This document shows positions 9,604-22,479 of a stretch of DNA of 32,000 bases, piece by piece. The stretch is from the NCBI GenBank assembly GCA_963821465.1, contig CAWGDV010000029.1, forward strand, positions 392,597-424,596. The letters are read 5' to 3'. The translations under genes were made by a program, and so were the position numbers. The first letter of the stretch is position 1; every line of letters begins with the position of its first letter. The notes under the pieces were generated by a model that had not been told where the DNA came from, searched no databases, and worked only from the letters and a program-made list of their open reading frames with translations. This DNA comes from an uncultured Nitrospiraceae bacterium (GTDB taxonomy: Bacteria; Nitrospirota; Nitrospiria; Nitrospirales; Nitrospiraceae).

Positions 9604-10557
9604 CTACACATGATTGCGCAACATGAGTTCCTTCGGATGCGGATTGAGATAGACCTGATCACGAATGTAGCCGACATCGAAGATCTGGACGTAGTGTTTG
9701 ATCAGCGTCAGAGGGACAACCAAGGGCGTGAGCTCCTGATGATAATCACCGATCACGCCCAATAGCTCGGCTTTCTCGTGAGCGCCGAGCCGCCCCTTGA
9801 AATACCCCAGGATGTGTTGGAGTACGTTCACATGTTTGCGCACCGTCGCTTTCACGGCCAATGCCTTCATGAACAGTTCCCCGTATCGGTGAGCGAGCTC
9901 CTTGGGACGGTGCTGATGCGCCTGACCGACCAGCCGCCCAAGCACCTCGCATTGCTGCGGACTATGGGCCAACAGTAAATATTTATGGACCATGTGGAAC
10001 TGCATCAGAGCCTGCCTCGTGACGCCACTCTGCACGAGATCCTGCCAGCGGCGGTAACAGAAGACTCGCTCGATAAAATTCTCCCTGAGCGTAGGCTCGC
10101 AGAGCCGCCCCTCTTCCTCAACCGGAATCAGCGGAAACTGTTCGATAAAGGCCCGAGCAAATAGTCCGACTCCGTTCCGGCTGGGTATTCCATGCTCATT
10201 GTAGAGACGAACTCGCTCGATCCCGCAGCTCGGCGAGCCTTTCTTAAATACGTACCCGGATAAATCCAAACTCTTAAGTCCCTCGATACGATGCGTGGCC
10301 ATCGTCTCTAGTGCGCGCGTGTGATCTGTCCCACTCTTGATCGTCACGAGCCGTGGATTCTGAAGATCGCCGACCAATCGCATCGCCTCGCGAGGAGTGC
10401 CCAGTCCTGCCTCAACCTCCGGACAGACCGGGACCCACTCCACATAGCGGCCAAACACATCGGTCAGAAAACTGTCCCGCTTATGTCCCCCATCGAACCG
10501 GACTTCGTCTCCGATGAGGCAACGGCTGATCCCAAGACGGAGCGCCACGGTCGTCAT
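9604..10557 (-). CDS. YbgA-like DUF523/DUF1722 protein
   Basis: The N-terminal DUF523 pattern (GISRCLIGDEVRFDGGHK..VPVCPEV) is followed by the DUF1722 helical part (..HYLLLAHSPQ..). The ATG at 10557 overlaps the photolyase stop (ATGA), so the start was moved from 10650. Confidence 0.85.
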   Translation of the reverse strand: MTTVALRLGISRCLIGDEVRFDGGHKRDSFLTDVFGRYVEWVPVCPEVEAGLGTPREAMRLVGDLQNPRLVTIKSGTDHTRALETMATHRIEGLKSLDLSGYVFKKGSPSCGIERVRLYNEHGIPSRNGVGLFARAFIEQFPLIPVEEEGRLCEPTLRENFIERVFCYRRWQDLVQSGVTRQALMQFHMVHKYLLLAHSPQQCEVLGRLVGQAHQHRPKELAHRYGELFMKALAVKATVRKHVNVLQHILGYFKGRLGAHEKAELLGVIGDYHQELTPLVVPLTLIKHYVQIFDVGYIRDQVYLNPHPKELMLRNHV

Positions 10558-12002
10558 CTCGTCACCAGTTGCTTGCCAAGGGCTAAATACTCCTCGCGGG
10601 CTTGCCGGTGATCCACGATGGGCGAAGAATAGTCTGTGCCGATACGGCATCCCGCCAGGGTCTGTTCTTCCTGGGTCATCAGATGCGGCGCATGAATCCG
10701 GTCAGTCGGAACGCCTGCAAGCTCCGGCACATACTGCCGAATGTACGCGCCGTCGGGATCGAACTTCCTGCTCTGCAGCATAGGATTGAAAATTCTGTAC
10801 CCCGGCATGGAGTCCGTCCCGGTCGAGGAGGCCCATTGCCAATTGCCGTTATTGGCCGCAAGGTCGGCATCGACCAGTTGCTGCATGAAATAGCGCTCTC
10901 CGCTTTGCCAATCGATGCGAAGATCTTTGATGAGAAACGACGCCACGACCATCCGCACGCGATTGTGCATCCATCCGGTCTGGTTCAACTGCCGCATGCC
11001 TGCATCCACCAGCGGATAACCGGTTCGTCCGTCACACCAGGCGGCATAGAGCCGATTCCACTCCGCTCCCGCCGGACGGGGTCTCGGCAGTCCGTCCTTG
11101 CTTCGGAACGGACCGGAGACCACTTGTGGAAACGCGGACAAGATTTGTTGGAAAAACTCACGCCAGATCAATTCATCGATCCAGGTGAGCACGTCGCGCC
11201 GCGATACGCGGCCTCCTGCCGCGAACGTGCCTAAGGCCGCATGCACGGCGGTTCGCACCGAGAGAGTTCCGAACCGGAAGTGGGGGGACAGTTTGGATGT
11301 CCCGTCGATCGCGGGGAGATTCCGTCCTTTAACGTACCTGTGAATGGGGCCATTAAGAAACCAGCGAAGCCGTCGCTGCGATTCCTTCTCTCCCGGTTTG
11401 ATGAACAAGGGGGCTGTCTGATAGCCGAGATCTTCCACCGTCGGTAGCGCGATCCGGTGTGACAAAGCACCGGAGCGCTGGACTCGCAGCCTGACGGCGG
11501 AGGGAAGGAGCGGCGGAGTCGCGGCGTGCCACTTGGTCCACCACCGGGCACGATAGGCGCTGTATCGCTGCAAAGGATCTCCCGTCGATCCTCTGATCTC
11601 TTCGGCCTCGAAGACCACATGGTCCTTGTACGTGTGGACCGCCACACCACGGGTCATCAGCGCCTGCTGGACTTTCCGATCTCGCTCGATCGCCGCCGGC
11701 TCGTAATCGCGATTCCAATAGACCGCATCGGCCTTGACGTCCGCGACGAAACGGATCACCTCCTCGATTTGATTCCCCCGGCGCCACTGCAGGGCCAGTC
11801 CTAGAACGGCCAGGGCACCGGCAAGCTCGTCGAGACAGGAGAGCATGAACGTCACGCAGGGCGAGCCAAACTGCCGTGAGCGCAAGAGGGGATCGTCAAA
11901 TACGAAGAGAGGAATGACGTCGTCGCAATTTGCGCAGGCGGCAGTGAGTGCCGGTTGGTCCTGCAGCCGTAGGTCCCGTCTGATCCAGACAACCCCTCTC
12001 AT
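10554..12002 (-). CDS. phr: deoxyribodipyrimidine (CPD) photolyase
   Basis: N-terminus VWIRRDLRLQDQPAL and the FAD-binding region TGYPLVDAGMRQL..GWMHNRVRMVVASFL..DADLAANNGNWQW are present. SD GGAGGA lies upstream. Confidence 0.9.
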   Translation of the reverse strand: MRGVVWIRRDLRLQDQPALTAACANCDDVIPLFVFDDPLLRSRQFGSPCVTFMLSCLDELAGALAVLGLALQWRRGNQIEEVIRFVADVKADAVYWNRDYEPAAIERDRKVQQALMTRGVAVHTYKDHVVFEAEEIRGSTGDPLQRYSAYRARWWTKWHAATPPLLPSAVRLRVQRSGALSHRIALPTVEDLGYQTAPLFIKPGEKESQRRLRWFLNGPIHRYVKGRNLPAIDGTSKLSPHFRFGTLSVRTAVHAALGTFAAGGRVSRRDVLTWIDELIWREFFQQILSAFPQVVSGPFRSKDGLPRPRPAGAEWNRLYAAWCDGRTGYPLVDAGMRQLNQTGWMHNRVRMVVASFLIKDLRIDWQSGERYFMQQLVDADLAANNGNWQWASSTGTDSMPGYRIFNPMLQSRKFDPDGAYIRQYVPELAGVPTDRIHAPHLMTQEEQTLAGCRIGTDYSSPIVDHRQAREEYLALGKQLVTR

Positions 12003-13442: not shown

Positions 13443-14357
13443 TTATCCCTTCGTCATGATCGCCCGCAAGGCCGGTTCCAGTGTCGGGTAGTGAAAGATG
13501 TATCCCCCGGCGAGCGCCTTCCCCGGACTAACCCGTTGGCCCGTGGTCATGAGCGTCCCCAGTTCACCCAGTGCCAGGTGTAATGCGAAACCCGGCACGG
13601 GCAGCCAGGATGGCCGGTGGAGGACTCGTCCGAGTACCTCACAGAAGGTGTTCATCGTCACAGCCTCTGGAGCCACCGCATTGAGGGGACCAGCGACGCT
13701 CGGCGTCGTGAGTACCCACTGGATCAGACCGATGTGATCACCTCGATGGATCCACGACACCCACTGAGTTCCCGGCATGACCGGGCCGCCCGCAAAGAGC
13801 TGGAACGGCAACAGCATCTTCGGCAAGGCACCGCCGTCTTGCTCGAGCACCATCCCGGTCCGCAACATGACGACTCGCACACCGAATTCCGCAGCCCGAA
13901 GCGCCTCCGCTTCCCATGCAAGACAGAGATCGGCCAGAAAGCCTTGGCCGCGAACGGCGCCCTCATCCAATATACGATCGTCGCTGGGCCCGTAGTAGCC
14001 GATACCGGAGGCGCTGATCAGCGTACACGATTTCGAGGACCGGCGAGACAGGGCTTCTACCAGTAGATGAGTGGTGAGGACCCGGCTTTCCGTGAGGAGG
14101 TGCTTACGGGTATCAGTCCAGCGCTCATCGGCAATCGGCGCACCGGCCAGATTGATGACGGCATCGGCACCTTCGAGACAGTGCTCCCATCCTCCCGCAT
14201 TCTGGCCATTCCACTCGACGACCGTGACGTTTGAGCCACAGGACCGTTGCGCTTGAATCCTTCTCGTGAGGAGGGTGATCCGATGGCCCTCCTGACAGAG
14301 AGCGGCACATAAGGGCCGACCGATGAACCCCGTTCCGCCGGTAATAACAATCTGCAT
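13443..14357 (-). CDS. TIGR01777 (YfcH/SDR39U1-like) epimerase-family protein with DUF1731 C-terminus
   Basis: Rossmann motif ITGGTGFIGRPL, 304 aa in length, with a C-terminal ..GQRVSPGKALAGGYIFHYPTLEPAL typical of this family. Confidence 0.85.
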   Translation of the reverse strand: MQIVITGGTGFIGRPLCAALCQEGHRITLLTRRIQAQRSCGSNVTVVEWNGQNAGGWEHCLEGADAVINLAGAPIADERWTDTRKHLLTESRVLTTHLLVEALSRRSSKSCTLISASGIGYYGPSDDRILDEGAVRGQGFLADLCLAWEAEALRAAEFGVRVVMLRTGMVLEQDGGALPKMLLPFQLFAGGPVMPGTQWVSWIHRGDHIGLIQWVLTTPSVAGPLNAVAPEAVTMNTFCEVLGRVLHRPSWLPVPGFALHLALGELGTLMTTGQRVSPGKALAGGYIFHYPTLEPALRAIMTKG

Positions 14358-14402: not shown

Positions 14403-14726
14403 CTAGTCGCCGTGCTGCTTGTCGCTCCCATGGCCGTTCCGATCTTGCCCCTCTGACATATCTCGATCTACCCGTTGAGCATACTTTCGCTGCTTCACGC
14501 CGTGTAAGAGATCCGGCATCGGGTTCAATCGGTTCTGAAGAATGACCGGGTCGATGACCTCGCCACAACTGGTGCAACGCACACCCGTGATGCCGATTTG
14601 ACCAGTATCGTCTTGGAGGTCCAGGTAATACTCCTTGATCATCAATCCCCCGCAACGCGTGCAGGTGCCTTCGCCGGCTTGCGAAGTGGAGCGTGGACGA
14701 TTGTCTGGTCTCCCATTCGATTCCAC
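14403..14726 (-). CDS. small C4 zinc-ribbon protein, uncharacterised family (paralog of 21127-21423)
   Basis: CTRCGGLMIKEYYLDLQDDTGQIGITGVRCTSCGEVIDPVILQNR aligns residue-for-residue with the second copy (CxxC-x22-CxxC). The frame choice is supported by this conservation. The SD is weak. Confidence 0.7.
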   Translation of the reverse strand: MESNGRPDNRPRSTSQAGEGTCTRCGGLMIKEYYLDLQDDTGQIGITGVRCTSCGEVIDPVILQNRLNPMPDLLHGVKQRKYAQRVDRDMSEGQDRNGHGSDKQHGD

Positions 14727-14768: not shown

Positions 14769-14894
14769 TCACCTGACTCGAAACCTACCCACTCCGGCCT
14801 GCCGTCGCACCGCCACAGCCGTTCTCCATTGCGCGGCGCATGTCCACCAGCGTAGAGCTACCATTGCCATTACCACCAAGATGATCTGGTCCAT
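14769..14894 (-). CDS. candidate 41-aa membrane mini-protein downstream of amoC
   Basis: The ATG at 14894 is preceded by GAGGAGG at a 5-nt spacing. The product is MDQIILVVMAMVALRWWTCAAQW.. (one TM followed by an Arg-rich tail). It lies in the 280-bp gap between amoC and the zinc-ribbon gene. No homology evidence. Confidence 0.3.
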   Translation of the reverse strand: MDQIILVVMAMVALRWWTCAAQWRTAVAVRRQAGVGRFRVR

Positions 14895-15005
14895 GCTGCC
14901 CTCCTCACCATCTGTCCTCTCGCTAATATCCCAACCGGGTGGTTGGCGGCCCTGCTCTCCGGCATCCGGAGCGCGGGACCAGCCCACCGCAACCAACGGC
15001 CTGAC

Positions 15006-15806
15006 TTAGTACGGGATCACGTGCAAGCAGTCCTTGCTCTCGTTGTTCCAGACCACATCGCACAGGTTCGACATGCGCGCCACAATCTGCGCCGCCACGC
15101 CGCCCGTCCCGCCAAACAACCCGCACCAGCCCAAGGTCACAAAGCCCCAGTGCAACGGCGCGGCAAAGAGTTCATCGACAAACCAGAACGCATGCCCCCA
15201 CTCGTTGAGTCCCACGTTGGGCAGAATCATCATCGGCCCCACGATCGCCCCCACCAAGGGGAACGAGACCGCCTTGCTGAACTGCGGCAGCCGGGTCATG
15301 GCATACAGATAGCTCGCCACGCCACAGGTGATGTACAGCGGGAAGGTGAAGTAGAACGCGATGATATGGCTGGCGGTGAAGCTCGTATCGCGGATGATCA
15401 CCTGATGCCACGACGCGTCCTGCTCCAGGGTGTAGCTCCCCGCCCAATAGACGCCGAACACGTACAGCGCGAGCCACATCATCCAGTAGAAATACCGCTT
15501 GAGTTCGGTCTTGGGATCCACGTTGGCCACGTTGCGATCCCGCGTGCTCCAAATCCATCCCAAGGTCGCGGACGCGAAGATGATGTTGGAAATCACGTTA
15601 AACCGCCACAGGCCCATCCAGACATTCTCGAACTCCGGCGTCATGGAGTCCAAGCCGTGGGAGTAGCCGAAGACGCGCTGAAAGACGACTTCGGAGCCCA
15701 CCGCCGCCAACATGGCAAACCAGCCGATCTTGAGGGGCCTGGAATCGTACCAGAGCGACATATCATAGCCCCGGTCTGACCCTCCCCACGTTGTTGTACT
15801 CGCCAT
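15006..15806 (-). CDS. amoC: ammonia monooxygenase subunit C (orphan copy, no amoA/amoB adjacent)
   Basis: Long collinear matches to AmoC/PmoC: [84 protein letters not shown]. Confidence 0.95.
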
Positions 15807-15841: not shown

Positions 15842-15930
15842 GCGTATTGAGACCCACTCCCCATCTCATCACTGCCGACAGTCCCGCTCCTTCATTCTTG
15901 TCACCCCCTTTCGTGGCTCACCGAGCAGAC

Positions 15931-15999
15931 AGGCCCCTCCGGGGTGTAGGGAGGGGCCTATCTACCTCAGCGGGAGGCGCCGTGCGGAGTCGCGGCGCC
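15931..15999 (-). terminator. two tandem GC-rich hairpins separating the upstream FGE-like gene from amoC
   Basis: AGGCCCCTCC (15931-40) pairs with GGAGGGGCCT (15950-59), and GGCGCCG (15976-82) pairs with CGGCGCC (15993-99). No U-tract, so terminator function is inferred only. Confidence 0.4.
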
Positions 16000-16075: not shown

Positions 16076-16921
16076 CTACTTCTGTTGGGTCTGGCCCTCG
16101 AGACCCCGTGCACAGCGAAAGCCTGTACCATGGGTCTGCAGCGCGAATCCGCCGCGCCCGCGCGCCGTCGTCGTGATGTCCGAGATCGGGCTATGCCAAG
16201 ACCCACCGCGAATCGATCGGACCACGCCTTTTTTCTCAGGACCCTGCGGATTCCGATCCGGCGCATGCTGGTAGTACTCAGCGTCATACCAATCCTGCAC
16301 CCACTCTCGAGCATTACCGGACAGGTCCTTCACCCCGTAGGGTGAGTCGCCGTCGGGCAAGGACCCGACCGGATGCAATGTGTGCTCCTCCTCCCACTCA
16401 CGGTCAAAGTTCGCCCGCTTCGATGTCGCTGGTTCATTGCCCCAAGGAAAGAGACGACCATCGGTGCCGCGAGCGGCCTTCTCCCATTCCGCTTCCGTCG
16501 GGAGCCGCTTCTTGGCCCAACTGCAATAGGCCTTGGCGTCGTACCAGGTAGTCTGCACGACCGGAAGCTGTTCGATTCCCTTCACGGACAGGAGCGGGCC
16601 TGTGCCATAGGGATTCGGAGGGCTTCGATGGCCCGTGGTCGCAACGAACGCCAGATACCGTGCATTCGTCACTTCGACTTGATCGATCGCAAACTCGTCG
16701 AGGTACACAGATCGCTGCGGCCACTCATCTGCCCGGCCTTTTCCTTCCGGATTCCCCATCAAGAATTCTCCAGCCGGAATCGTCACCATGGGGACCGGGT
16801 CAACCTCTTTGGGAACCGGCGGCGCTGCGACGACAGGCGCGATGGCGACGGCACAGACTAGGGCCATCATCGCAACAATAGTGCTCCAGCGAGTTCCTCT
16901 TCTCCTCAGACCTTGCGTCAT
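16076..16921 (-). CDS. periplasmic FGE-sulfatase (SUMF1/PvdO-type) domain protein
   Basis: Start at 16921 (MTQGLRRRGTRWSTIVAMMALVCAVA, signal peptide) overlaps the upstream stop (ATGA). Motifs [25 protein letters not shown] and GFRCAR are present. Confidence 0.85.
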   Translation of the reverse strand: MTQGLRRRGTRWSTIVAMMALVCAVAIAPVVAAPPVPKEVDPVPMVTIPAGEFLMGNPEGKGRADEWPQRSVYLDEFAIDQVEVTNARYLAFVATTGHRSPPNPYGTGPLLSVKGIEQLPVVQTTWYDAKAYCSWAKKRLPTEAEWEKAARGTDGRLFPWGNEPATSKRANFDREWEEEHTLHPVGSLPDGDSPYGVKDLSGNAREWVQDWYDAEYYQHAPDRNPQGPEKKGVVRSIRGGSWHSPISDITTTARGRGGFALQTHGTGFRCARGLEGQTQQK

Positions 16922-17286
16922 TTCTTCTGCTCCTTGCTCCCCTCGATGGCCTTGGTGGTATGGACTTTCACTTGGCTTACGAGACGCTGCACCTGACGCT
17001 CGTCTCCCCGCTCGGCTGCCTCTTGCGCCTGAGTGATGAGGGTTCTGGCTTCGTGCAGGTGCTGCTCGATTTCGGCCTGCAGGGCAGGGGAAGCGACCGT
17101 TCCGCCTAACGCCGCGCGATGATAGACCTCCCACGCCTGGTCCACATCATGCTCGGCCTCATGCACCGTCTGGGCCTTGTCTGGCTGCGGATGCCGGGCC
17201 GGATCGATGGGATCAGCCTGGAGGGGTGAGGCCCCGAGTAGTGCAAGGAGGACAATCCCTGGAAGGAGAATCTTGCCGTGTATCAT
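16918..17286 (-). CDS. exported all-helical protein (weak Spy/CpxP-like flavour)
   Basis: Signal peptide MIHGKILLPGIVLLALLGASPLQA followed by charged helical sequence (LITQAQEAAERGDERQVQRL). Translationally coupled to the downstream FGE-like gene. Confidence 0.6.
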   Translation of the reverse strand: MIHGKILLPGIVLLALLGASPLQADPIDPARHPQPDKAQTVHEAEHDVDQAWEVYHRAALGGTVASPALQAEIEQHLHEARTLITQAQEAAERGDERQVQRLVSQVKVHTTKAIEGSKEQKK

Positions 17287-18473: not shown

Positions 18474-20030
18474 TCAGCGGCGGTGCGGCGCCGCCGTCTG
18501 CCCGTTAGGTATCTTCGCCTTATCGAGGTCTCTCATTTCACGCAACGCTGCTTGTGCGATTCCCCGCAGCATCCCACTAAACACCAACTCGTGCGGCACG
18601 TAGAGCGAATACCAATAGATCTGCCCGATCAGTCCCACCGGATCAAAGATCGCGGTCTGCCGGATCGTCGTCGAAGAGCCGGACCCCGTCACCTCGAACT
18701 CCAGCCATGCCCGCCCGGACAAATGCATCTCGGATTTGAGCCGCAGGCGGCGGTTCGGCTCAATCGCCTCCACGCGAAATGAGTCGACCGTATCACCGAC
18801 GTGAAGGGTCGTGGCAGAAGGCCGTCCACGTCTCAAGCCCACACCCCCTTCGAGCAGGTCGATGAAACCGCGCACCCGCCACAGCCAGTTCCATGCGTAC
18901 CAACCATTGTCACCACCGATTCTCTCAATGCATTTGAAGACGACTTCAGGCGGCGCTTCGACGGTCAACGTCCGCGAATCGACCAGACGCGTGCCGAACC
19001 GCACGCCCCCCCACGACTGCAACTTTCCCGATGAGGAGAGCGCATCGGACCAGCGCGTTGCCGCGAAATGCGTCTCTTCATGGGCTAGAGCTCGGCGAAT
19101 TGCCTCATCGACTCCCATCGGACGTACAGAGAAGGTTGCGAGCGCGGCATTGTCCCGCACCACCGTGACATGGACGATGCTCTCAATAATCGCCCGCCCG
19201 ATGCGAGCGTATAACGGCGTGACCAATCCAAGCCACAGAGCAGACAACCAAGGGGTGAGGACCGGCACGGGGATGATCAGAGGCGCTAGCCCGCGTTGCC
19301 GCCCATACGCACGCATCATATCTGCGTAGGACACTTGGTCCGCACCGCCGACCTCGTATATGCGGTATTTGGAGGTGGGAATCCGAAGCGCTTCCATCAG
19401 GTAGTCCAGCAAGTCGTCGATCGCGATTGGCTGCGCCTTCCCCTTGACCCATCTCGGTGTGAGCATGACCGGCAGGCGCTCCACCAGCGCGCGAATCAGC
19501 TCAAACGAGGCGCTGCCGGAACCAATCACGGCCGATGCGCGAAACTCACACACGGGCAGGCCCGACTGCCGCAAGATATCTCCGACCTCGTGCCGACTGC
19601 GCAGATGTGTCGAGAGTTCCTCTTCGTCGCTGCCCAAGCCTCCCACATAGATGAGGCCCTTGACACCCGCTGCCTTCGCCGCTTCGCTAAAGTTCCGCGC
19701 CGCCTGCCGGTCCGTCTCTTCAAAAGAGCCGGTCGAACTCATGGAGTGAATCATGTAGTAGGCCACGTCGACTCCGCGCAATGCGGAGTCGAGACTCGGT
19801 CGATCAAGGACGTCACCCGCGACAACTTCCGTTGATGGACCGACCTTCGGCTTGAGAATTTCTGGATGCCTGGCCACGCAGCGCAAGCGGTACCCCTGAT
19901 TCTCCAACGACGGCAGGAGGCGCCCGCCAATGTACCCGCTGGCACCTGTGAGAAGAATGAGGGACTTCTCCGGAATTGCCGCTGGGCTCACTGTCGATTT
20001 GCTCGCCACCATGGTTTCAGACGTATTCAT
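18474..20030 (-). CDS. NAD(P)-binding SDR-family protein with C-terminal DUF2867 domain
   Basis: Rossmann motif LLTGASGYIGGRL. The C-terminus GWYAWNWLWRVRGFIDLLEGGVGLRRGR..GRAWLEFEV is characteristic of DUF2867. The ATG at 20030 is preceded by AGGAGG, whereas the GTG at 20048 is not. Confidence 0.85.
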   Translation of the reverse strand: MNTSETMVASKSTVSPAAIPEKSLILLTGASGYIGGRLLPSLENQGYRLRCVARHPEILKPKVGPSTEVVAGDVLDRPSLDSALRGVDVAYYMIHSMSSTGSFEETDRQAARNFSEAAKAAGVKGLIYVGGLGSDEEELSTHLRSRHEVGDILRQSGLPVCEFRASAVIGSGSASFELIRALVERLPVMLTPRWVKGKAQPIAIDDLLDYLMEALRIPTSKYRIYEVGGADQVSYADMMRAYGRQRGLAPLIIPVPVLTPWLSALWLGLVTPLYARIGRAIIESIVHVTVVRDNAALATFSVRPMGVDEAIRRALAHEETHFAATRWSDALSSSGKLQSWGGVRFGTRLVDSRTLTVEAPPEVVFKCIERIGGDNGWYAWNWLWRVRGFIDLLEGGVGLRRGRPSATTLHVGDTVDSFRVEAIEPNRRLRLKSEMHLSGRAWLEFEVTGSGSSTTIRQTAIFDPVGLIGQIYWYSLYVPHELVFSGMLRGIAQAALREMRDLDKAKIPNGQTAAPHRR

Positions 20031-20100
20031 TGTCAGACCTCCTGTCACGACTTGGGCCCTCGGAGGGGGGACGATGCCGCCCCCTCCGCCAGTCCTTCAA

Positions 20101-21068
20101 CTAGTTCTTCTTCATGCTCTTCTTGATCAGATCGCGTGTCGCGAGGTATTCCTTGTTGCCAGGCTCCGCAGCCAACGCCTTCTCGATGGAGGACATCGCA
20201 TCGGCGTTCTTCTCAGCGCCCATCGCGACTAATGCCTGAATGAACGCATCGCGGCCTGCTTGCATGGCTTCATCGGAAACCGCCTGTGCCGACTTCGCGC
20301 AACGGAACCCGAGGCCGACCCCATAGGAGTTATTCTCCGGCTGATTCCAGAACCGATGGCTCGTATGGAGGGAGGTTTCCGGCGCGAGCCAGGAACCGCC
20401 GCGCAGCACCCTCACCGGGCCTTGATTGGCAAAGTTGTAGCCCTTCTCGGCGCCAGGTGGATTCAAGGCAGGGCTCTCCTTATAGTATTTCAGGTCATAC
20501 CAATCCTCGACCCACTCGAAGACGTTCCCTGCCATGTTATAGACCCCAAACCCGCTGATCCCTTCTGGATAGGAATCCACCGGCGGTGGTACGACCAACA
20601 TTCTGCCCATAGTTGGCTTTCTTCGGGTCGAGTGTATGGCCCCAGGGATAATGGTTGTCGCCTTGCGGACCTTTTGCCGCTCGCTCCCATTCTGCTTCCG
20701 TCGGAAGCCGCTTGCCTTCCCACTTGCAGAACGCGCTTGCATCATTCCAATCTACGCCGACCACCGGCTGATCGGCCTTACTCAGTCGAGGATCATCCCA
20801 ATAGGCCGGGGCCGGGTGACCGCTGGCTTTCATAAATTCTTTGTACCGCTGTGTTCGAGGCTTCAAACTTGTCGATCAGATAGGCATCGAGCACGACCTG
20901 GTGCTTGGCTTCATCTGAATGTTCATTGCTCCCCATGGTGAACTCGCCCTTTGGGATCAGCACCATGTCCTTATCGCTGTTCGGCATGTCCGCCGCTGTT
21001 GCGACAGTGATGGCTCCTGCCATCAATGCCACCCCCAATCCGACCTGAAGCACTCTGTAACTCCTCAT
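20101..21068 (-). pseudogene. FGE-sulfatase domain gene (closest to 17340-18398) broken by two frameshifts
   Basis: Homology runs through three frames (ORFs 20793-21095, 20537-20866, 20101-20745). The shifts lie near 20846-20848 (GCGG where GCG fits) and near 20585-20595. A signal peptide, [25 protein letters not shown] and GFRCAK are all retained. Confidence 0.8.
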
Positions 21069-21126
21069 AGGACACCCCCCTTGGTTTTGGAACACCAGGA
21101 CGATCCTGGTTGGTTAATAACTACCA

Positions 21127-21423
21127 CTATGAGCAGTTCGTTACGCAATTGTTTTGATATATTCTCCCTGCAAGCTGAACTGTGGTCGAATCTTGCCGGA
21201 GCTGCCGATTGTGCAGAATGACGGAATCGACAACCTCACCACACTGCACACAGCGTTTCGCCGCAATCTCAGACTCCCCGATGTTTCCGAGTACATCCAG
21301 GCAGAAGTCCTGAACCATGAGTCCGCCGCATCTGGTGCACGTCGATTCATGTTGGGCTGTGGAAGATGCCGTGTGATTCTCGCTCGGTTCATTGTTCGTT
21401 TTCACCGTCAACGCTCTTGCCAT
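21127..21423 (-). CDS. small C4 zinc-ribbon protein, uncharacterised family (paralog of 14403-14726)
   Basis: CTRCGGLMVQDFCLDVLGNIGESEIAAKRCVQCGEVVDSVILHNR. The ATG at 21423 is preceded by TGGAGGT. It is the first gene of the minus-strand train and is divergent from the MerR/B12 regulator. Confidence 0.7.
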   Translation of the reverse strand: MARALTVKTNNEPSENHTASSTAQHESTCTRCGGLMVQDFCLDVLGNIGESEIAAKRCVQCGEVVDSVILHNRQLRQDSTTVQLAGRIYQNNCVTNCS

Positions 21424-21465
21424 GGCTACCTCCATAGGTTTTTTGTTTAATGTTTGTAATAAGTA

Positions 21466-21537
21466 TGTCCAATGTATAAACCATTTTGTCCAATGTGTCA
21501 AGTGTTATTGTAAAATATATTTGACAAACATTAGACA
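21466..21537. promoter_or_regulatory. three copies of a 10-bp box, ACATT(G/A)GACA, overlapping both divergent promoters (candidate operator)
   Basis: TGTCCAATGT occurs at 21466-21475 and at 21487-21496, giving a 21-bp periodicity. The inverted copy ACATTAGACA lies at 21528-21537, a 9/10 match. Each promoter has a box abutting its -35 hexamer, and one box covers the minus-strand -10. Confidence 0.5.
21473..21501 (-). promoter_or_regulatory. sigma70-like promoter for the zinc-ribbon gene
   Basis: The minus strand reads TTGACA (21501-21496), a 17-nt spacer and TATACA (21478-21473), about 50 nt upstream of the ATG at 21423. Confidence 0.5.
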
Positions 21538-21549
21538 TTACAATACAAT
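21521..21549 (+). promoter_or_regulatory. near-consensus sigma70 promoter for the MerR/B12 regulator gene
   Basis: TTGACA (21521-26), a 17-nt spacer and TACAAT (21544-49). The ATG at 21562 follows with a very short leader and no SD. Confidence 0.55.
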
Positions 21550-21561
21550 GAAAATGTAAAT

Positions 21562-22479
21562 ATGAATATTCATAGAATTCATAGAGTTGCAAAACTCACT
21601 GGCCTCTCAAAAGATGTCATCCGGGTATGGGAGCGCCGGTTTGGACTCTTAAAACCGACTAGAGGAGCCAATCGTTATCGTAATTACTCCGATGAGGATG
21701 TCACGTTGCTGAGGTTCCTGAAGGAGCAGCTGGATGCCGGAAGCTCTATCGGAGAGCTGGCGAAATTAGGGCGTGAGGAGTTGTTGGGGCGAGCACGAGC
21801 CAGCGCGCCGCGAGTGTCCTTCGTCGACAATACATTCAGCAGGCTCCTGCGGGAACTACTGTCCACGCTGAATCCCTTCGATCGTGTGATCTTTGAAAAG
21901 CGTTTGAACGGCGCCGTTGCGGTTGTTCCGTTTGAGGAGGCACTTCACGGGATCTTGCTCCCGCTTCAGGAGCAGGTCGGGCAGTTGTGGCATGAGGGCC
22001 ATGTGAATGTAGCCCTCGAACATTACGTCACGAAGCAAATTCAACAGAAGATTTTCTCGGCCATGAATCAGCTCCCAGTCGCTGAGTTTGGCGCCAAAGT
22101 GATCGTGGCCTGCCCGCCCGGTGAAGAACACGACATTGCTGCATTGGCGGTTGCGTATCGATGTCGTGTTCGTGGCTGCCGAGTCTACTATTTGGGGGCC
22201 AACGTGCCCATTGCCTCGCTGACTAACCTCTGTGATAAGGTGAAGCCGGACTTGACTATCATTTCCTTTCCACTCGCGCTTCCTGAAGCCAACGCGGCGG
22301 CGCTGGTCCAATCCCTCACACATGAGGTGGTTCCGGCCTCGCGTCTCGCCGTCGGAGGACATGGCGCGCTCGCCATGCGTGACCTTTTCGTGAAATCTAA
22401 TATTGAGATCGTGGAAGACTTTGCCGACTTGGATGTCATGCTGGATCGATTCATGCGGCAGTCCTTATCCCGAGGGTAG
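21562..22479 (+). CDS. MerR-family regulator with C-terminal cobalamin-binding domain (CarH/LitR-type candidate photoreceptor)
   Basis: MerR HTH RVAKLTGLSKDVIRVWERRFGLLKPTR..RYRNYSDEDV. Wx9EH motif WHEGHVNVALEH at 21988-22023. B12-binding Rossmann segment VIVACPPGEEHDIAALAVAY with His at 22126-22128. Confidence 0.85.
   Translation: MNIHRIHRVAKLTGLSKDVIRVWERRFGLLKPTRGANRYRNYSDEDVTLLRFLKEQLDAGSSIGELAKLGREELLGRARASAPRVSFVDNTFSRLLRELLSTLNPFDRVIFEKRLNGAVAVVPFEEALHGILLPLQEQVGQLWHEGHVNVALEHYVTKQIQQKIFSAMNQLPVAEFGAKVIVACPPGEEHDIAALAVAYRCRVRGCRVYYLGANVPIASLTNLCDKVKPDLTIISFPLALPEANAAALVQSLTHEVVPASRLAVGGHGALAMRDLFVKSNIEIVEDFADLDVMLDRFMRQSLSRG

Follow-up and report, generated by a model that had tools for sequence, protein, structure and literature searches.

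Zinc-ribbon paralogues without a named family stand at the heads of a CarH-type gene cluster in Nitrospira

Two small genes in a 32,000-nt stretch of DNA from an uncultured Nitrospiraceae bacterium (the window, by which we mean the whole stretch analysed) code for proteins with two pairs of cysteines, and one of these genes lies immediately behind the promoter region that it shares with a gene for a MerR-B12 photoreceptor-repressor. What kind of proteins are these, and what could they do at such a position? We designate the two proteins ZnR-B and ZnR-A (Table 1). The ZnR-B gene has an ATG start with a GGAGG ribosome binding site at 21429-21433, seven bases upstream; the ZnR-A gene has a GTG start, with GAGGG upstream.

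In a BLASTP comparison the two products were 45% identical over 67 aa with an E-value of 8e-21, far beyond chance. They have in common the core C-x-R-C-G-G-L-M-V ... D-L ... G ... R-C-x-x-C-G-E-V-V-D-P-V-I-L-x-N-R, in which the cysteine pairs are spaced CxxC-x25-CxxC and are followed by a short helix, D-P-V-I-L-x-N-R. An earlier sequence-only reading of the window had recognized the collinear core, as the alignment confirms, but had miscounted the spacing as CxxC-x22-CxxC. It had also called the termini unrelated; this is correct for the comparison between the paralogues, though among the orthologues of either protein the termini are conserved. Orthologues of ZnR-A share MESNGRPDN at the N-terminus and LNPxPxLLHGVKQRKYAQRVD as the tail, and orthologues of ZnR-B share the tail QLRQEPMTVQLAGKMLPNNCV. 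Word-indexed searches returned 532 homologues for ZnR-B and 332 for ZnR-A (E-value ≤1e-3), many of them 60-95% identical. Judged by these comparisons, ZnR-A and ZnR-B are paralogues and both are genuine conserved genes. We consider it close to certain that they represent a real paralogous family which is promoter-proximal in a CarH-type cluster.

Table 1. Position, strand and basis of assignment for features of the cluster in the window
Feature	Position	Strand	Basis
CarH/LitR-type MerR-B12 photoreceptor-repressor gene	21562-22479	plus	Pfam MerR_1 + B12-binding_2 + B12-binding
Divergent promoter/operator region, 138 bp	21424-21561	.	Motif scan; alignment of about 20 Nitrospira loci
ZnR-B, 98-aa zinc-ribbon protein, promoter-proximal in the putatively CarH-controlled cluster	21127-21423	minus	ORF and translation
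Conserved stem-loop ACCAGGATCGTCCTGGT (ACCAGG-ATCG-TCCTGGT), between ZnR-B stop and FGE ribosome binding site	21094-21110	minus	
First FGE-like gene (sulfatase-modifying-factor domain), co-transcribed with ZnR-B	20101-21068	minus	Pfam on three fragments
122-aa exported protein, helical	16918-17286	minus	
Strong GC-rich hairpin 3' of last FGE gene, boundary of cluster halves	15928-15962	minus	Conserved in many loci
amoC copy, between FGE block and mini-ORF/ZnR-A	15006-15806	minus	Pfam AmoC 352 bits; NCBIfam AmoC_BACT above cut-off
Strong GC-rich hairpin 3' of amoC	14948-14980	minus	
Conserved 41-aa mini-ORF, own GAGGAGG ribosome binding site, about 40 nt upstream of ZnR-A	14769-14894	minus	Upstream-region alignment
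ZnR-A, 107-aa paralogue heading second cluster half, directly 5' of DUF1731 epimerase	14403-14726	minus	ORF and translation
NAD-dependent epimerase with DUF1731, 45-nt gap from ZnR-A	13443-14357	minus	
p195, 195-aa exported protein, C-terminal membrane helix	12257-12844	minus	

No family model of Pfam, NCBIfam, PHROGs or PADLOC reached its threshold for ZnR-A or ZnR-B, and a profile search of PDB sequences gave chance matches only (E-value >1); the earlier remark that the core could not be assigned to a named family thus stands. The commonest sub-threshold match of the family was the TFIIB ribbon, Pfam PF08271 (Zn_Ribbon_TF), seen in 23 of 125 members and in all of them below threshold; it scored 23.2 bits with ZnR-A and 19.4 bits with ZnR-B against a gathering threshold of 29. 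AF2 models of the two proteins have a confident ribbon with two long strands and a short helix (core pLDDT 80-90 for ZnR-A), while the termini are disordered. When the models were compared with the PDB by Foldseek, the best match of ZnR-B was the N-domain of MqsA (E-value 0.03, probability 0.98-0.99), and the top matches of ZnR-A were the ribbons of Rpa12, Rpb9 and TFIIS (E-values of 0.3-0.6, non-significant); for both proteins only generic zinc ribbons were found, all with E-value >0.01. The fold is thus that of a classical zinc ribbon. The proteins are cytoplasmic, about 100 aa long, with a four-cysteine ribbon and an acidic surface. We conclude that ZnR is a new, unnamed family of known fold. 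The literature that we searched contained nothing on zinc-ribbon proteins in CarH/LitR regulons, on this Nitrospira cluster or on ZifS/TTHA0897, a weak fold match. In the libraries and papers searched we found no description of the family, of its confinement to Nitrospirota or of its constant position at the head of a cluster that is apparently under B12/light control.

An exhaustive HMMER profile search against 1.84 billion cluster representatives (50%-identity clusters) detected 2,209 ZnR clusters at E-value ≤1e-3 and 493 at E-value ≤1e-10. All clusters found had the same core in proteins of 50-180 aa (80-130 aa in round figures). Every labelled member came from Nitrospira, Nitrospiraceae or Nitrospirota, save one on a 3-kb contig binned as Pyrinomonadaceae; a divergent subfamily was present on some unlabelled AT-rich contigs.

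Residue conservation and isoelectric points were determined for 125 diverse members of the family. Invariant or nearly so are C22, R24, C25, G27, D36, R50, C51, C54, G55, D59, I62, N65 and R66, and a fifth cysteine at position 34 occurs in 66% of members. The ribbon core is acidic, with a median pI of 5.0 and 81% of the values below 6, and its β-hairpin loop carries acidic residues as well (D36 in 97%, D39/D40 in about 45%, and E43). Such an acidic globular core argues against direct binding of nucleic acid by the ribbon and for binding of protein. The tails, in contrast to the core, are basic (median pI 10.3) and contain recurrent KQRKY, RRxWP and TKWS motifs; in many members these basic aromatic tails could contact RNA or membranes. 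The tail of ZnR-B itself is not basic.

The C-terminal end of the family has one more peculiarity. Among 148 family representatives 14 end in -AA, mostly in -VAA or -QAA (P0297, P0348, P0365, P0375, P0383, P0400, P0402, P0403 and P0415 are examples), where 0.75% is expected, a ∼12-fold excess (P about 1e-11). An -AA ending, which resembles the C-terminal tags of the ClpXP type, is a typical degradation signal in short-lived regulators, and the excess suggests that some ZnR paralogues are protease-labile in the same manner. None of 240 close orthologues of ZnR-A and ZnR-B had this ending, nor did the two proteins of the window.

The divergent region between ZnR-B and the regulator gene holds a putative sigma-70-type promoter for ZnR-B (-35 element TTGACA at 21496-21501, 17-nt spacer, -10 element TATACA at 21473-21478). 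Two direct repeats of ACATTGGACA, at 21466-21475 and 21487-21496 and thus 21 bp apart, overlap this promoter; an inverted copy at 21528-21537 is located near the predicted carH promoter TTGACA-17-TACAAT (21521-21549). Over about 20 Nitrospira loci the region is nearly invariant and the operator-like repeats are kept. ACATTGGACA is confined to the divergent region: we found no CarH-type operator upstream of ZnR-A, and a search with a strict sigma-54 promoter pattern upstream of both the A and B genes gave no match. In its sequence the neighbouring MerR-B12 regulator conforms to the CarH/LitR family by domains and by motifs, with the Wx9EH hallmark as WHEGHVNVALEH at residues 143-154 and ExHxxA as EEHDIA at 188-193; its best NCBIfam model is CarH, with 126 bits against an equivalog cut-off of 400. 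In the CarH/LitR family the His of a (D/E)xHxxG motif serves as lower axial ligand. Since ZnR-B comes first behind a promoter that a CarH-type operator overlaps, light most likely induces its production. Within the first codons of carH (21560-21590, plus strand) lie a palindrome, ATGAATATTCAT, and a tandem repeat, ATTCATAGA ATTCATAGA; CTATGAATTCTATGAATATTCAT in this same stretch has kept its nucleotide sequence in the Nitrospira loci and may be an additional regulatory site within the start of the coding region.

The minus-strand genes that come after ZnR-B are an FGE-like gene (frameshifted), SDR-DUF2867, a second FGE-like gene, the 122-aa exported protein, a third FGE-like gene and amoC. After amoC come the mini-ORF, ZnR-A, the DUF1731 epimerase, a PDZ protein and p195; then photolyase, DUF1722, CbiX and an FGE-cytochrome c gene. 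The first FGE-like gene is spread over three frames by two single-C insertions, near 20851 and 20582; it is 98.8% identical to its intact counterpart at locus L005, from which it differs in length by these two 1-nt insertions, and its true ATG is at 21066-21068. The frameshifts are either a homopolymer assembly error or a recent pseudogenization. At L005 other genes of the cluster are fragmented. Neither p195 nor the 122-aa exported protein, both of which are conserved, had a match in Pfam or NCBIfam. The cargo of the cluster (9604-12002, 13443-14357 and 18474-20048, minus strand) includes photolyase, a DUF1722/2-thiouracil-desulfurase-like protein, SDR-DUF2867 and the DUF1731 epimerase, and resembles proteobacterial photo-oxidative-stress regulons under sigma-E/ChrR or MerR-type regulators; here it is joined by three to four periplasmic FGE-like proteins. 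We rejected the idea that ZnR is a substrate of the FGE-like proteins: the motif C-x-P/A-x-R is absent, and the FGE-like proteins, unlike the cytoplasmic ZnR, have signal peptides.

Several RNA-level elements accompany the two ZnR genes. The stem-loop directly after ZnR-B was compared over 28 loci: 94% of the cells were paired, against 28-53% in slid controls, and three pairs showed compensatory changes; it has no U-tract. RNAalifold run on the spacer between ZnR-B and the FGE-like gene missed this local hairpin, and the figures refer to pairing tested with the structure named. We did not find a conserved or comparable hairpin 3' of ZnR-A, and an Rfam search of the whole window gave no match. 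The two GC-rich hairpins, after the last FGE gene and after amoC, are likewise devoid of U-tracts. The mini-ORF product MDQIILVVMAMVALRWWTCAAQWRTAVAVRRQAGVGRFRVR consists of one hydrophobic helix and an arginine-rich tail, RRQAG.GR.RV, and a comparable mini-ORF precedes ZnR-A in about 36 of 49 loci (39 raw matches, a few of them spurious). It is missing where p195 is directly upstream, and the end of p195 is a similar membrane helix with a basic tail.

How constant is this arrangement? We mapped 80 species-representative Nitrospira loci. A CarH-type gene is directly divergent from a ZnR gene in 70 of them, which agrees with the earlier placing of one copy first behind a CarH-type divergent promoter; in 72 an FGE-like gene comes next after the ZnR gene, and 50 of the 80 have two or more ZnR genes. 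The order CarH, ZnR, FGE was retained even around a very divergent orthologue (P0322). Where the cluster contains the DUF1731 epimerase gene (54 loci), a ZnR gene directly precedes it in 46. The gene for p195 lies directly before a ZnR gene in eight loci and directly after one in five.

The place of amoC is much less constant. The second ZnR copy does follow amoC in the window, as had been noted, and the sequence-only reading had proposed from this a regulatory relay from the light promoter to amoC. In the relay's favor, amoC shares the cluster with ZnR genes in 13 of the 80 loci. It stands directly before a ZnR gene in six loci and directly after ZnR-B in three. Against the relay, the site of amoC varies among three (behind the FGE block, behind p195 or right behind ZnR-B), and the same two-paralogue arrangement exists without amoC in the cluster in the canonical nitrite oxidizer Nitrospira moscoviensis and in many other genomes. 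Furthermore, amoC of the window, together with its own hairpin, occupies the spacer that elsewhere joins the conserved hairpin to the conserved mini-ORF; by this comparison it is a lineage-specific insertion into an intergenic spacer. The insertion and the adjacency to the epimerase tie ZnR-A to the epimerase block rather than to amoC, and, as far as gene order tells, the ZnR paralogues are not specifically tied to amoC. We regard the relay as extremely unlikely. The same reading had expected homologues to keep company with amoC, FGE-like or MerR-B12 genes; the association is strong for MerR-B12 and FGE-like genes and is not found for amoC, so the main observation survives the test that the reading had set for itself.

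Full-length amoC genes embedded in the cluster were seen at loci L005, L010, L011, L014, L017, L020, L025, L028, L030, L037, L038, L040, L044 and L061. Ammonia monooxygenase is inactivated by light and has to be synthesized de novo (PMC9797979). The cluster-borne gene looks like a candidate for a light-induced spare AmoC in comammox Nitrospira, which is possibly more interesting than the zinc-ribbon genes themselves.

ZnR genes were also found in other surroundings. Of six independent contexts, five have a promoter-proximal ZnR gene that heads an operon: in two of them the CarH operator or a sigma-54 promoter lies upstream, and in three the gene precedes the epimerase block, an SDR-DUF748 pair or a response-regulator/DUF4197 group. 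The exception is a fourth paralogue of the N. defluvii type, which is solitary. The third paralogue (L072 7662-8192, L077 7881-8279, L080 4183-4536) has a B-like tail; its operon, in which it comes first, starts behind a promoter of the sigma-54 type, CTGGAACGCGAGTTGCC (TGGAAC-N5-TTGC), with TTCGGCA/TGCCG repeats upstream. It adjoins a gene for a GAF-domain sigma-54 activator, with p195, a methyltransferase, a TetR regulator and an RND pump coming next; the pump is of the multidrug type, and we rejected a link to heavy-metal efflux for this reason. ZnR-B is separated from the next gene by 31-57 nt and ZnR-A by 45 nt; at L095 the gap is 2 nt. Gene maps of about 90 loci contained no sigma factor gene.

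A regulatory role for ZnR, e.g. as anti-sigma or anti-adaptor factors, is a reasonable conjecture. The reading that we prefer, tentatively and with low confidence, is that ZnR proteins are small protein-binding regulators acting on the transcription apparatus. The adenosyl-B12 repressor would leave the DNA in the light, and ZnR-B would be made first; ZnR-A would lead the second half of the cluster, after the hairpin and the mini-ORF. The acidic ribbon might dock on the DNA-binding domain of CarH, in the manner of CarS, or on RNA polymerase, with disordered tails carrying subfamily-specific short motifs that recruit or tune. Proteins made early would then reinforce or extend the expression of a long photo-oxidative-stress operon. 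In some comammox lineages amoC is simply an additional cargo gene of the cluster. Paralogy, the conserved position (70/80, 72/80 and 46/54 loci), the near-invariant promoter/operator, the place at operon heads, the acidic core set against a basic tail and the -AA endings of some representatives are all consistent with this reading. So is the precedent of CarS from Myxococcus xanthus, a small acidic light-induced protein which, through contact between proteins alone, relieves CarH/CarA repression by mimicking DNA and sequestering the recognition helix of the repressor (PMC2926617). On the other side, the fold matches generic zinc ribbons only, ZnR lacks a DNA-binding domain and has no gene for a sigma factor in its vicinity, ZnR-A and ZnR-B of the window do not end in -AA, and the first place in an operon would suit an assembly factor or a translational activator too.

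The resemblance to known systems has definite limits. ZnR-B is like CarS of the CarA/CarH light regulon in being small, in having an acidic core and in its predicted induction by light. The two differ in that ZnR is a Cys4 zinc ribbon and CarS, which binds the winged-helix domain of CarA/CarH, has a metal-free SH3-like fold and is expressed under an ECF sigma factor; they have no relation in sequence or fold, which excludes a CarS-type protein by fold, and ZnR paralogues occur also outside CarH contexts, which argues against an antirepressor specific for CarH. The N-domain of MqsA (YgiT), which binds a protein partner, the MqsR toxin, has a CxxC...CxxC ribbon followed by a helix as ZnR does; ZnR, however, has no C-terminal HTH, no adjacent toxin gene and no sequence similarity to MqsA, and the Foldseek E-value of 0.03 is not significant. 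We rejected an MqsA/YgiT-type antitoxin, as the resemblance is confined to the ribbon and ZnR is flanked by carH and FGE-like genes or by the epimerase gene. Zinc-binding anti-sigma (ZAS) factors, for example ChrR and RsrA, are zinc-cysteine proteins governing the reaction to singlet oxygen and to oxidative stress, and the gene content of their regulons is similar (photolyase, DUF1722, SDRs). Here, unlike there, control appears to lie with a CarH-type repressor, and a ZAS anti-sigma factor was rejected because the H-x3-C-x2-C motif is absent and about 90 loci have no sigma gene. The three-stranded ribbons of TFIIB, TFIIS and Rpb9 in the archaeal-eukaryotic transcription machinery resemble ZnR, whose hairpin loop is acidic; ZnR, on the other hand, is without flanking TFIIB cyclin or TFIIS domains and without the catalytic D-E hairpin motif. 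The Pfam model TFIIS_C matched neither ZnR-A, ZnR-B nor any of the 125 members, and the acidic loop is not a D-E tip. To our knowledge, zinc ribbons of this type have no bacterial precedent. A bolder form of the preferred reading would make ZnR the bacterial counterpart of RNA-polymerase-docking TFIIS/TFIIB-like ribbons, or a zinc-ribbon analogue of CarS: a promoter-proximal, short-lived protein made first from stress operons, which would dock on RNA polymerase or the B12 photoreceptor repressor, would lock in and prolong expression, and in comammox Nitrospira would gate the light-induced making of a spare AmoC once ammonia monooxygenase is photo-inactivated. We hold this to be improbable.

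Each of three other explanations would account for part of the data. The tail motifs direct attention to RNA: ZnR could be a post-transcriptional leader factor, similar to Com or to lambda N, whose basic aromatic tail binds the mRNA of its own operon, activating translation of the gene that follows or allowing read-through of internal hairpins by RNA polymerase. In phage Mu the gene for Com, a small zinc protein of the Cys4 type, directly precedes the gene under its control, and Com acts on a nearby mRNA hairpin; the ZnR-B gene, too, is followed by a conserved hairpin, with compensatory changes. ZnR heads the operon in five of six contexts, strong hairpins split the cluster halves with ZnR-A coming after one of them, and the best (non-significant) folds of ZnR-A are ribbons associated with RNA polymerase. 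Still, the conserved core is acidic and the tail of ZnR-B is not basic, ZnR-A has no comparable hairpin behind it, Rfam has no match, and there is no similarity to Com or N (for Com no Pfam match even at E-value ≤10). Moreover, the hairpin after ZnR-B leaves the ribosome binding site of the FGE gene uncovered, and the hairpins, without U-tracts, need not be terminators. Such a leader factor we consider unlikely.

The short gaps to the next gene suggest, alternatively, a protein made in stoichiometric amounts with its neighbour, i.e. a cytoplasmic holdase or metal-delivery factor that helps in maturation or assembly of the FGE-like proteins, p195 or the epimerase. The recurrent adjacency to exported proteins, FGE-like and p195 (13 loci for the latter), is in line with such a helper, and four-cysteine sites can also bind Cu(I), while FGE enzymes and AmoC both belong to copper biochemistry. 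This possibility, to our mind unlikely as well, has to contend with the lack of a signal peptide in ZnR, given that the FGE-like proteins are exported, and with the fact that the downstream partners (FGE, epimerase, SDR, response regulator or none) are unrelated, so that one ribbon must serve very different clients. Finally, the ribbon could be a redox or metal centre, either a rubredoxin-like iron electron carrier or a zinc-thiolate switch sensing or buffering light-generated oxidants. Both knuckles read CxxCG, as in rubredoxin; the photo-oxidative-stress setting and the frequent fifth cysteine would fit, and NCBIfam gives a weak match to a rubrerythrin-like domain. The score of that match, 17.7 bits, is nevertheless far below the cut-off of 32, the second knuckle lacks the proline of CPxCG and the conserved aromatic core of rubredoxin is missing, on which grounds rubredoxin itself was rejected. 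Nor is any obvious redox partner conserved alongside ZnR across the contexts, and we judge a redox function unlikely.

Nitrifiers are notoriously sensitive to light, and the literature searched has no description of how Nitrospira senses and repairs light damage. The cluster headed by the two ZnR genes is deeply conserved and apparently switched by B12 and light, and the genes themselves belong to a large family without annotation. Should the ZnR proteins be no more than accessory zinc proteins, this would be a routine finding. If they are regulators, they would be a new component of CarH-type light switches and would offer a handle on photo-protection in nitrite oxidizers and complete ammonia oxidizers.
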